From contig CP060233.1 of assembly GCA_023898665.1 (NCBI GenBank), positions 289,833 through 353,832 of the forward strand: a DNA stretch of 64,000 bases. Direction: 5' to 3'. The DNA is from Candidatus Nomurabacteria bacterium. Lineage in GTDB: Bacteria > Patescibacteriota > Saccharimonadia > Saccharimonadales > HK-STAS-PATE-42. Every line of letters begins with the position of its first letter. Within the stretch, counting starts at the first letter, position 1. Shown here one piece after another: positions 6,224 through 7,062 of this stretch. Below the pieces are notes generated by a model. The model was not told the origin of the DNA, searched no databases, and saw nothing but the letters and a program-made list of their open reading frames with translations. The position numbers were made by a program, and so were the translations under genes.

Positions 6224-6339
6224 CTTTTTCTCCTTGATGAGAGAAAGTTAGCAAAAAGAATCATCTAATTATAGTAGGCCCCATTACTGTTTTTTCTTTA
6301 GAACCTGTACCAGGACGAGACTGGGCCTCGATCAAAATT
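6224..6339 (+). repeat. Structured intergenic repeat, copy A (hairpin 1 + AAAGAATC linker + long stem AATTATAGTAGGCCCC ... GGGCCTCGATCAAAATT)
   Basis: Lies between tsf and frr. Near-identical to copy B. Confidence 0.7.
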
Positions 6340-6390
6340 GTCTTGGTGTTGCAGAGTTAGATTAGATAGTTATGGTAGAATTATTAGTAT

Positions 6391-6942
6391 ATGGAAATGA
6401 ACGAGTTTAAGCAGAAACTTAGTCAGGCGATTGGTCGTCTGGAGGATGATTTAAAAAAGGTTAGGACCGGCAGAGCACATCCAGATATGCTCGACGGTGT
6501 TAGGGTAGAGGCTTACGGAACTCCGATGCCATTGAATCAGGTTGCAAATGTGTCTGTGCCAGAACCGCAGCTACTGCAAATTACTCCTTTTGACCCACAG
6601 AATTTGGATGCAATCGTAGAAGGTATTAGGAAAGATGAATCTTTAGGGTTAAACCCTAGCGACGATGGTAGGGTAGTTAGAGTCAATATTCCTCCTTTAA
6701 CAGAAGAAAGAAGAGCTCAGATCGCTAAGCAACTCGGTAGTAACGCAGAAGATGCGAGAATTGTATCAAGAAATATGCGTCAGGATGTTCTAAATAACTT
6801 TAAAAAACAAAAATCTTCCGGAGAGATTACAGAGGATGATCTAAGATCTCTAGAAAAAGAGGTCCAAGAAGAGCTAGATAAGTTCAATAAGCAAGTTGAT
6901 GAGTTGGTTAAGGCCAAAGAAGACGAAATAATGAAGGTTTAA
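6391..6942 (+). CDS. frr: Ribosome recycling factor
   Basis: 183 aa protein with RRF signatures (PFDPQNLDAIVEGIRKDESLGLNP ... IPPLTEERR). Confidence 0.95.
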   Translation: MEMNEFKQKLSQAIGRLEDDLKKVRTGRAHPDMLDGVRVEAYGTPMPLNQVANVSVPEPQLLQITPFDPQNLDAIVEGIRKDESLGLNPSDDGRVVRVNIPPLTEERRAQIAKQLGSNAEDARIVSRNMRQDVLNNFKKQKSSGEITEDDLRSLEKEVQEELDKFNKQVDELVKAKEDEIMKV

Positions 6943-6947
6943 CCTTA

Positions 6948-7062
6948 TTACTTTCTCCTTGGATGAGAAAGCAATCAAAGAATCACTTCAATTTTGATAG
7001 GCCCCATTACTGTTTTTTCTTTAGAACCTGTACCAGGACGAGACTGGGCCTCGATCAAAATT
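6948..7062 (+). repeat. Structured intergenic repeat, copy B
   Basis: Lies between frr and rseP. The 62 nt core CCCCATTACTGTTTTTTCTTTAGAACCTGTACCAGGACGAGACTGGGCCTCGATCAAAATT is identical to copy A. Confidence 0.7.

Follow-up and report, generated by a model that had tools for sequence, protein, structure and literature searches.

Six intergenic sites in the 64-kb stretch of contig CP060233.1 presented above (hereafter the window, meaning the whole of the DNA analysed) carry a structured repeat that is probably a lineage-specific, non-coding, non-autonomous mobile element, one of a modular family present in a clade of Saccharibacteria and divided here into the subfamilies W, F, X and Y (labels of our own). 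This assignment draws on the repetition of the unit, on covariation within its hairpins, on its presence or absence at orthologous slots in related genomes, on its decay and mosaicism, and on the independence of the neighbouring promoters from it. The family is best read as new, and as belonging to the general kind of intergenic repeat represented by REP/BIME, BOX or miniature inverted-repeat transposable elements (MITEs).

The window has a G+C content of 37% and consists of housekeeping genes, mostly co-directional, and its Frr and TopA homologues place it within the Saccharibacteria/Patescibacteria. The relatives used for comparison are syntenic loci (labelled L0xx), about 200 kb in all, whose Frr is from 95% to 67% identical to that of the window, the closest being L038 (95%). 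In every relative the neighbours of the elements are the same syntenic housekeeping genes (tsf, frr, rseP, greA, lysS). Furthermore, at least six independent assemblies with identical Frr genes contain the same flanking elements, and this recurrence of the same copies in independent assemblies of one species excludes an assembly artefact.

Architecture and recurrence of the unit

One unit comprises about 110-140 nt and is built from two modules and a short tail. Module 1 forms a hairpin (6-14 bp) whose 5' arm is rich in pyrimidines and whose 3' arm is rich in purines; its loop usually ends in GAT, and an A-rich linker of the form C-A(3-6)-(G)AATC(A) comes next. Module 2 is an imperfect long hairpin of 60-75 nt, the sequence of which is specific to the subfamily; in the W copies, AATTTTGAT-AGGCCC pairs with GGGCCT-CG-ATCAAAATT, the two arms enclosing a conserved interior of about 40-41 nt, and the tail reads GTGCARTG...GATTAA. 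The inverted repeat of the unit is internal to module 2. Hairpins lie 3-20 nt from each end of the unit, and the bases preceding the first of them (TTAC, ATAC or CCAC, depending on the subfamily) could be part of the element.

The 3' arm of module 2, GGGCCTCGATCAAAATT, with up to three mismatches allowed, is matched six times in the window against 0.16 expected, a number reached in 0 of 100 shuffles; five of these matches are elements and the remaining one (11984) is a chance occurrence. Similarly, an 18-nt core, TACCAGGACGAGACTGGG, is matched three times in the window against 0.01 expected. A family profile recovers copies A, B, C, D and F (6222-6356, 6947-7076, 11293-11424, 22312-22442 and 26847-26971) on the + strand only, at E = 3e-33 to 5e-19, and matches nothing else in the window; copy E, which falls short of E<=1, was recognised through its arm and through its hairpin plus linker. 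Arm, core and profile matches together bear out the six + strand sites that a preliminary description of this DNA had listed, and the copy before xseA (copy E), described there as shortened to the base of the stem, does lack the interior of module 2. The sixth site, which had been credited with module 1 only, is in fact a complete, diverged copy of a separate subfamily (copy F, 26847-26971). The same description placed every copy between a stop codon and the next promoter, with the motif GTGCA(A/G)T following; this does not hold throughout, in that copy D comes after about 330 nt of non-coding DNA and is directly preceded by a canonical terminator, CCCGCcagtGCGGGGTTTTT, at 22294-22313, copy F faces a convergent gene, and the motif is missing in copy E and varies in copy A between strains.

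Empty and filled slots, decay and promoters

The spacer between PIF1 and rluB measures 16-23 nt in L041, L043 and the window and 180 nt in L042, where a whole Y unit with both modules stands right after the stop codon and the downstream promoter GGTATAATAA is intact. A comparable series is found upstream of recO, where the slot is empty in the window (23 nt) and is occupied by an X element in L029, by a Y element in L031 and by an unrelated G+C-rich palindrome in L037, the recO promoter CAGTGGTAGAATAGGGGTATG being identical in all four. Such empty and filled slots point to insertion of the composite as one unit and to the dispensability of the elements. Decay and absence are also seen in the closest relative: in L038, frr and rseP overlap as TAATG, so that copy B and the entire spacer are absent, and a 68-nt deletion between TTTTTCT direct repeats has removed module 1 and the 5' arm from copy A. 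In more distant relatives the tsf-frr gap is either 4 nt long (L035) or contains a canonical terminator plus a promoter (L036).

Occupation of the slot alters neither the sequence nor the position of the recO and rluB promoters; these are thus ancestral and not part of the elements, which leaves the earlier suggestion that the element carries a promoter of its own without support. The promoters of the window appear to consist only of an extended -10 box, TGnTAnAAT, which is the general promoter form before the ATG in these genomes and which ends 7-14 nt before the start codon (6373-6381, 7094-7102, 11447-11455, 22441-22449, 2483-2491 and 15037-15057); in view of this distance, the mRNAs appear to be leaderless or near-leaderless. 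A candidate promoter within module 1 of the X subfamily (TTGATA-N18-AAGAAT) was rejected, the spacing ranging from 12 to 18 across copies and the promoters of the genome being of the TGnTAnAAT type. Survivorship best accounts for the finding of elements between stop codon and promoter, since with promoters that lack a -35 box and lie directly against the start codon hardly any other neutral target exists.

Covariation of the hairpins

Both hairpins show compensatory base changes. Within module 2, aligned over six sequences (four window copies and two from L039), both partners have changed in three of the 15 stem pairs, with 95.6% of cells paired, a result that only 5 of 500 shuffles reach, whereas pairing falls to 22-59% in shifted registers. 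Copy C, before lysS, contributes double changes from G-C to U-A and from G-C to A-U, in agreement with the preliminary description of a lysS copy altered in both arms, and the outer stem of copy A contains three changes without compensation. For module 1, pairs were counted by script, a MAFFT alignment having placed the arms out of register: 15 distinct arm sequences occur among 18 copies, and pairing amounts to 96% between the arms of one copy but to 75% after arms have been exchanged among copies, with full pairing in only 5% of the exchanged combinations.

The covariation is genuine, yet neither wobble nor folding energy identifies a strand. Module 2 has three G-U pairs when read on the + strand and two on the - strand, U-G wobbles in module 1 are about as frequent as C/A mismatches, and folding z-scores range between -0.5 and -2.5 for the + strand and between -0.8 and -3.5 for the - strand. 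The compensatory changes that had been noted from the letters alone are therefore real, but the strand-specific wobble dissolves into counts that are equally ambiguous, and the idea of an RNA read on the + strand finds no preference in wobble or z-scores and is further weakened by a copy in one relative that is antisense to both of its neighbours (see below).

A further pairing connects the loop of module 1 with the linker just past the A-tract, the complementary segments being CTTGAT/ATCAAG in X, AAAGAT/ATCTTT in Y and GGAT/ATCC in the Y copy of L037, with one G-T wobble in L036. The mean helix score of this loop-linker pairing is 4.86, compared with 3.78 +/- 0.16 for shuffled linkers (0 of 1000 reach the observed value) and 3.87 for cross-subfamily combinations, the copies not being independent of one another; in copies B and D of the window the pairing is weak. 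The predicted topology is a pseudoknot, which is treated here as a lead only. Also relevant is the observation that module 1 is common to every subfamily, including those of relatives whose Frr is only 67% identical. It is conceivable, although quite unlikely, that module 1 is a conserved single-strand signal (a loop-linker pseudoknot across an A-rich bridge) that is read in one chromosomal orientation independently of transcription. If so, this would point to a novel type of mobile element, guided by hairpins and coupled to replication, or to a strand-specific DNA signal, in Patescibacteria.

Subfamilies, mosaics and conservation

Elements that share module 1 and differ in module 2 occupy the same intergenic gaps in the relatives. 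Subfamily W is present in the window and in L039, with a remnant in L038, and F in the window, L039, L033 and L037; X is found in L029 (three copies) and L031 (two), with partial matches to module 1 alone in L037 and L033 and a full-length but weak match (E = 7e-6) in the distant L036, and Y in L031 (four copies), L029, L037 and L042. Copies of one genome are 83-98% identical, the X copies of L029 reaching 94-98%. The contents of a slot differ between species: the greA-lysS gap holds an F-type element in L039 and L033 and no family member in L029, L031 or L037, and the site orthologous to copy E is occupied in L039 by a full-length W copy.

The modules are also reassorted. One L039 copy combines a C-like module 1 with a B-like module 2, and another an F-like module 1 with a W module 2; within the window, 65 nt of copy A (6275-6339) are 100% identical to copy B, the two differing clearly in module 1.

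Some further repeats were seen in comparable positions. In the same species, 3.6 kb upstream of the window (L001, 1796-1978), the gap between ftsX and a CHAP gene contains TTTATTTTTTCTTTGAAGATAAAATTAG, which looks like a decayed Y-type module 1; the corresponding slot of L031 holds an intact Y element. Other small palindromic repeats, of the types GTCATCCTGAGC...GGATCC and CCCTCTCCCTnnnnGGGAGAGG, lie in the same stop-to-promoter slots of L031 (9805-9865), L033 (4760-4890 and 6249-6474) and L037 (5884-5987, 7134-7230 and 19742-19799), from which it follows that these slots collect several unrelated repeat families.

The elements are far more conserved than synonymous sites. In the comparison of the window with L039, identity is 44% at third codon positions of frr, which is near saturation, as against 70-80% for the W elements and 88-90% for their module 2 cores; between L029 and L031, X elements are 94% identical as against 71% at third codon positions of frr. 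The element sequence could be maintained either by continual replacement from conserved master copies, that is, by selection at the level of the element, or by a host function.

Orientation of the copies

Twenty-five of 26 distinct copies are oriented as the upstream gene. Nearly all of them lie in one co-directional gene block, however, so that the direction of transcription and the chromosome strand are not separated by this count. The only copy in an inverted gene block is the Y unit between PIF1 and rluB in L042 (3346-3458), which is antisense to both neighbours and shares its absolute orientation with copies lying about 40 kb away on that contig. This one observation favours a chromosome-strand rule over a transcription rule.

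Copies in the window

The coordinates of the six copies and of their parts are collected in Table 1. In the relatives, too, the copies cluster around tsf-frr-rseP.

Table 1. The six copies of the repeat in the window and the limits of their modules.
Copy	Position	Strand	Location	Module 1	Linker	Module 2	Tail	Profile E	Remarks
A	6223..6365	+	tsf-frr	6223-6248 (hairpin)	6249-6266	6267-6339	6340-6365	4e-30	outer 5' arm of module 2 damaged: AATTATAGT
B	6951..7086	+	frr-rseP	6951-6971 (CTTTCTC/GAGAAAG)	6972-6989	6990-7062 (AATTTTGATAGGCCC...GGGCCTCGATCAAAATT)	7063-7086, ending in GGATTAA	3e-33	
C	11301..11439	+	greA-lysS	11301-11320	11321-11339	11340-11410	11411-11439	3e-23	diverged
D	22316..22442	+	upstream of RlmD-like methyltransferase	22316-22343	22344-22358	22359-22429	22430-22442	7e-31	one G-U pair in module 2; tail overlaps -10 box 22441-22449
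E	2385..2460	+	mprF-like gene to xseA	2385-2420 (14-bp hairpin)		2426-2460 (base of stem alone remains)			internally deleted
F	26851..26988	+	after hpf-like gene, before convergent gene	26851-26878	26879-26889	26890-26960 (diverged)	26961-26988 (GGTGCAGTGG...GATTTAA)	5e-19	F subfamily

Proposed mode of spread and alternative explanations

In the scheme that we favour, the whole unit would insert between a stop codon and an extended -10 box, which is nearly the only harmless place in these compact genomes; the copies later exchange segments (as in the A/B mosaics) and decay by deletion (as in copy E, and in copy A of L038). The hairpins and the sequence would be kept because the element needs them in order to be copied by a trans-acting enzyme, and we infer that mobilisation takes place in trans. 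The leading guess as to its mechanism is a strand-specific one that reads the hairpins, as in REP/RAYT and IS200/IS605-derived elements; that each end has a hairpin close by, that terminal inverted repeats are missing and that one copy is oriented with the chromosome and not with its neighbouring genes all hint at such a mechanism. Read-through transcripts would carry the hairpins in their 3' untranslated regions, any stabilising effect being incidental, so that a role at the RNA level is possible as a dispensable side effect that the evidence does not require.

Several observations weigh against an active mobile family. No terminal inverted repeats bound the unit in any subfamily, the left end (..yAC TTTCT..) not being complementary to the right (GTGCAGTG..GATTAA, GGACACCTCAC or CGRCCRGYG), and the direct repeats at the junctions (CTAA in L042, TTAA in copy B) are confounded with stop codons and AT-rich flanks. 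No transposase or recombinase domain, including Y1_Tnp and DDE, was detected in the scanned open reading frames of the window (the majority of those with 70 aa or more), and the approximately 200 kb read from relatives contain no transposase or recombinase linked to the elements; the mobilising activity is hypothetical. All six copies fall within 2-27 kb of the window (2385-26988), with none in the interval of 27-64 kb, and this clustering is unexplained. The orientation argument draws on a single informative copy. The identical A/B cores beside a diverged module 1 mean that gene conversion, and not transposition alone, shapes the copies, and a host function acting through RNA would likewise be compatible with the above-neutral conservation and with the co-orientation of 25 of 26 copies.

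Such a function is an unlikely explanation of the family as a whole. Under it, the hairpins in the 3' untranslated region, perhaps together with a loop-linker pseudoknot, would act as a non-canonical terminator, hold off 3' exonucleases or be processed so as to uncouple neighbouring genes; such a role would agree with the position of copies 2-19 nt after stop codons, with their orientation along the upstream gene, with covariation in both hairpins, with the excess of loop-linker complementarity over shuffled linkers, with conservation well above that of synonymous sites, and with the fact that the tsf-frr element sits where a distant relative has a canonical terminator. The elements are, however, dispensable at orthologous sites in close relatives; copy D and the tsf-frr copy of L039 come directly after canonical terminators and so are probably poorly transcribed; the L042 copy is antisense to both neighbours; and the + strand folds no better than the - strand, with wobble showing no strand bias. 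Nor does either hairpin precede a U-tract, module 1 being followed by an A-tract and module 2 by AAAATTG/A, and a scan with a terminator consensus flags only module 1 of copy E and nothing in the X copies. The bipartite terminator that had been proposed for the repeat is hence not supported, given the missing U-tracts, the two copies placed behind canonical terminators and the close relatives that do without an element at the same sites.

The elements are still less likely to form a conventional cut-and-paste MITE mobilised by an IS5/Harbinger-type DDE transposase, with YTAR or TAA as the target duplication. Their size, copy number and decay are typical of MITEs, the cleanest insertion (L042) is flanked by CTAA...CTAA and copy B by TTAA...TTAA, and many copies have TTAA, CTAA or TTAG at both limits of similarity; against this, the left TAA is usually the stop codon and such tetranucleotides are common in AT-rich flanks, no subfamily is bounded by terminal inverted repeats, the strong orientation bias would not be expected, and no DDE transposase was seen in the window. 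It is likewise very improbable that there has been no mobility at all and that the repeats are ancestral spacers that concerted evolution through gene conversion has homogenised and that certain lineages have lost. The 65-nt core shared by copies A and B beside different versions of module 1, the L039 copies that unite module types found separately in the window and the confinement of the copies to about 25 kb are in line with concerted evolution. It is difficult to reconcile, on the other hand, with slots of 16-23 nt in three genomes, where the promoter abuts the stop codon, that are filled in a fourth, with the occurrence of different subfamilies in one slot in different species, and with the minimal spacers of two more distant relatives at the slots examined.

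Implications and other features of the window

Saccharibacteria and other Patescibacteria have very small, streamlined genomes, which are usually assumed to be poor in repetitive DNA. If the family described here is indeed active, selfish non-coding elements would persist even in streamlined genomes, turning over between close species, and would give rise to recombination and to differences in the length of intergenic regions; they could serve as strain-level markers and would provide a handle on an unrecognised mobilising enzyme. For annotation, they are a warning that the 170-nt 'regulatory' spacers of this region would be insertions and that the true promoters would be the extended -10 boxes abutting the start codons.

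Other non-coding regions and genes of the window deserve mention. About 330 nt of non-coding DNA follow mraZ (21968-22313), ending in the terminator at 22294-22313; they have no Rfam match and could represent a small RNA or a small open reading frame. The mraZ gene itself is separated from mraW/rsmH (35641-36522) by 14 kb. A 558-nt non-coding gap between dprA and pth (49641-50198) contains several G+C-rich hairpins and is conserved (L042, 7339-7853; L043, 7303-7806), with no Rfam match even at E<=1 and no tmRNA detected by ARAGORN. At the switch from + to - strand genes, which are convergent there, lies an AT-rich non-coding region of 733 nt (42588-43320) that is partly conserved (L041, 15111-15722; L042, 14008-14758). 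The lysS gene (11465-13810) encodes a protein of 781 aa in which lysyl-tRNA synthetase is fused to a C-terminal AlaX-like editing domain (residues 537-780), its orthologues in relatives having 503-769 aa and other extensions or none. Finally, a large serine recombinase gene adjoins a tRNA gene in L041 (1-405) and L042 (1-1355), and probably marks an integrated element that is absent from the window, where tRNA-Glu (55788-55862) lies beside PIF1.

Comparison with known families

No element matches an Rfam family at the gathering threshold, the only Rfam hit in the window and in six related loci being a tRNA, and at E<=10 the element regions score 10-22 bits against gathering scores of 32-101, which is noise. 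The literature searched contains no description of the family, viral contigs and a phage collection gave no match, and the pattern CAGGAYG(N)GAYTGGGYCT(M/N)GAT retrieved only chance matches, in G+C-rich coding DNA, from genome and metagenome collections. The Rfam and literature searches thus agree with the preliminary description, which had assigned the repeat to no named family.

Other assignments were tried and rejected. Integron attC sites are not supported, R''/R' cores (RYYYAAC...GTTRRRY) being absent and the neighbours being syntenic housekeeping genes. The resemblance of copy A to a hammerhead ribozyme (CTTGATGAG...GAAAG) is confined to a 'core' that falls in the variable hairpin loop and is absent from other copies. 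A pseudoknot promoting stop-codon readthrough or frameshifting, suggested by positions 8-10 nt after stop codons, does not agree with the several copies that are not beside a stop codon, with the reversed copy or with the in-frame stops that follow.

Like the Correia elements of Neisseria (CREE) and other MITEs with terminal inverted repeats and target-site duplications, the repeats are about 100-150 bp long, intergenic and multi-copy, their presence varies between strains or species, and they are often co-transcribed with neighbouring genes. Correia elements have, in addition, 26-bp terminal inverted repeats, a TA duplication, a promoter of their own and an IHF site. Here the terminal inverted repeats, the IHF site and a promoter of the element's own are absent, the promoter beside each copy being ancestral, and no clear TA duplication is seen. 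Of the possibilities raised at the outset, a mobile, MITE-like element fits best, while the likeness to Correia elements is not borne out, for want of bounding inverted repeats and a clear TA duplication.

The BOX elements of Streptococcus pneumoniae (boxA-boxB-boxC) are comparable in being intergenic and non-coding, in having reassorting modules and a predicted stable structure, and in having no identified transposase. There is no sequence similarity to them, and in the present family the shared module is a short pyrimidine/purine hairpin with an A-rich linker, the variable module is a long hairpin, and the number of modules does not vary in tandem.

PATEs, which are miniatures of IS200/IS605, also have hairpins near both ends and no terminal inverted repeats; in the present repeats two junctions, both ambiguous, give no clear target duplication, and the orientation seems to follow the chromosome strand and not the genes, as judged from a single informative copy. 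The present repeats differ in that no conserved target tetranucleotide is separable from the element, the AC before the hairpin varying with the subfamily; TTAC was considered as an IS608-like target and rejected, given that the 4-mer before the hairpin tracks the subfamily and is inseparable from the element. Their hairpins are AT-rich and far more variable than IS200/IS605 ends, and no TnpA or TnpB was found among the scanned window open reading frames or linked to the elements in the relatives read.

Compared with the REP/BIME and REPIN elements of Proteobacteria, which are served by RAYT Y1/HUH transposases, the repeats described here are AT-rich, about 130 nt long and without a conserved GTAG-like tetranucleotide, their arms are not themselves palindromes, their copy number seems low, at about six per 64 kb, and the copies are clustered, neither the scanned open reading frames of the window nor the surroundings of the elements in the relatives read revealed a RAYT, and their phylum is Patescibacteria. 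The likenesses are nevertheless numerous: both are extragenic, mostly just after genes, and consist of hairpin units arranged in mosaics; module 2, with two inverted arms of 15-17 nt around a spacer, recalls a REPIN; and both combine strong constraints on orientation and structure with long persistence and turnover. In keeping with this kinship in kind, all copies of the family are intergenic, their modules reassort and both of their hairpins covary.

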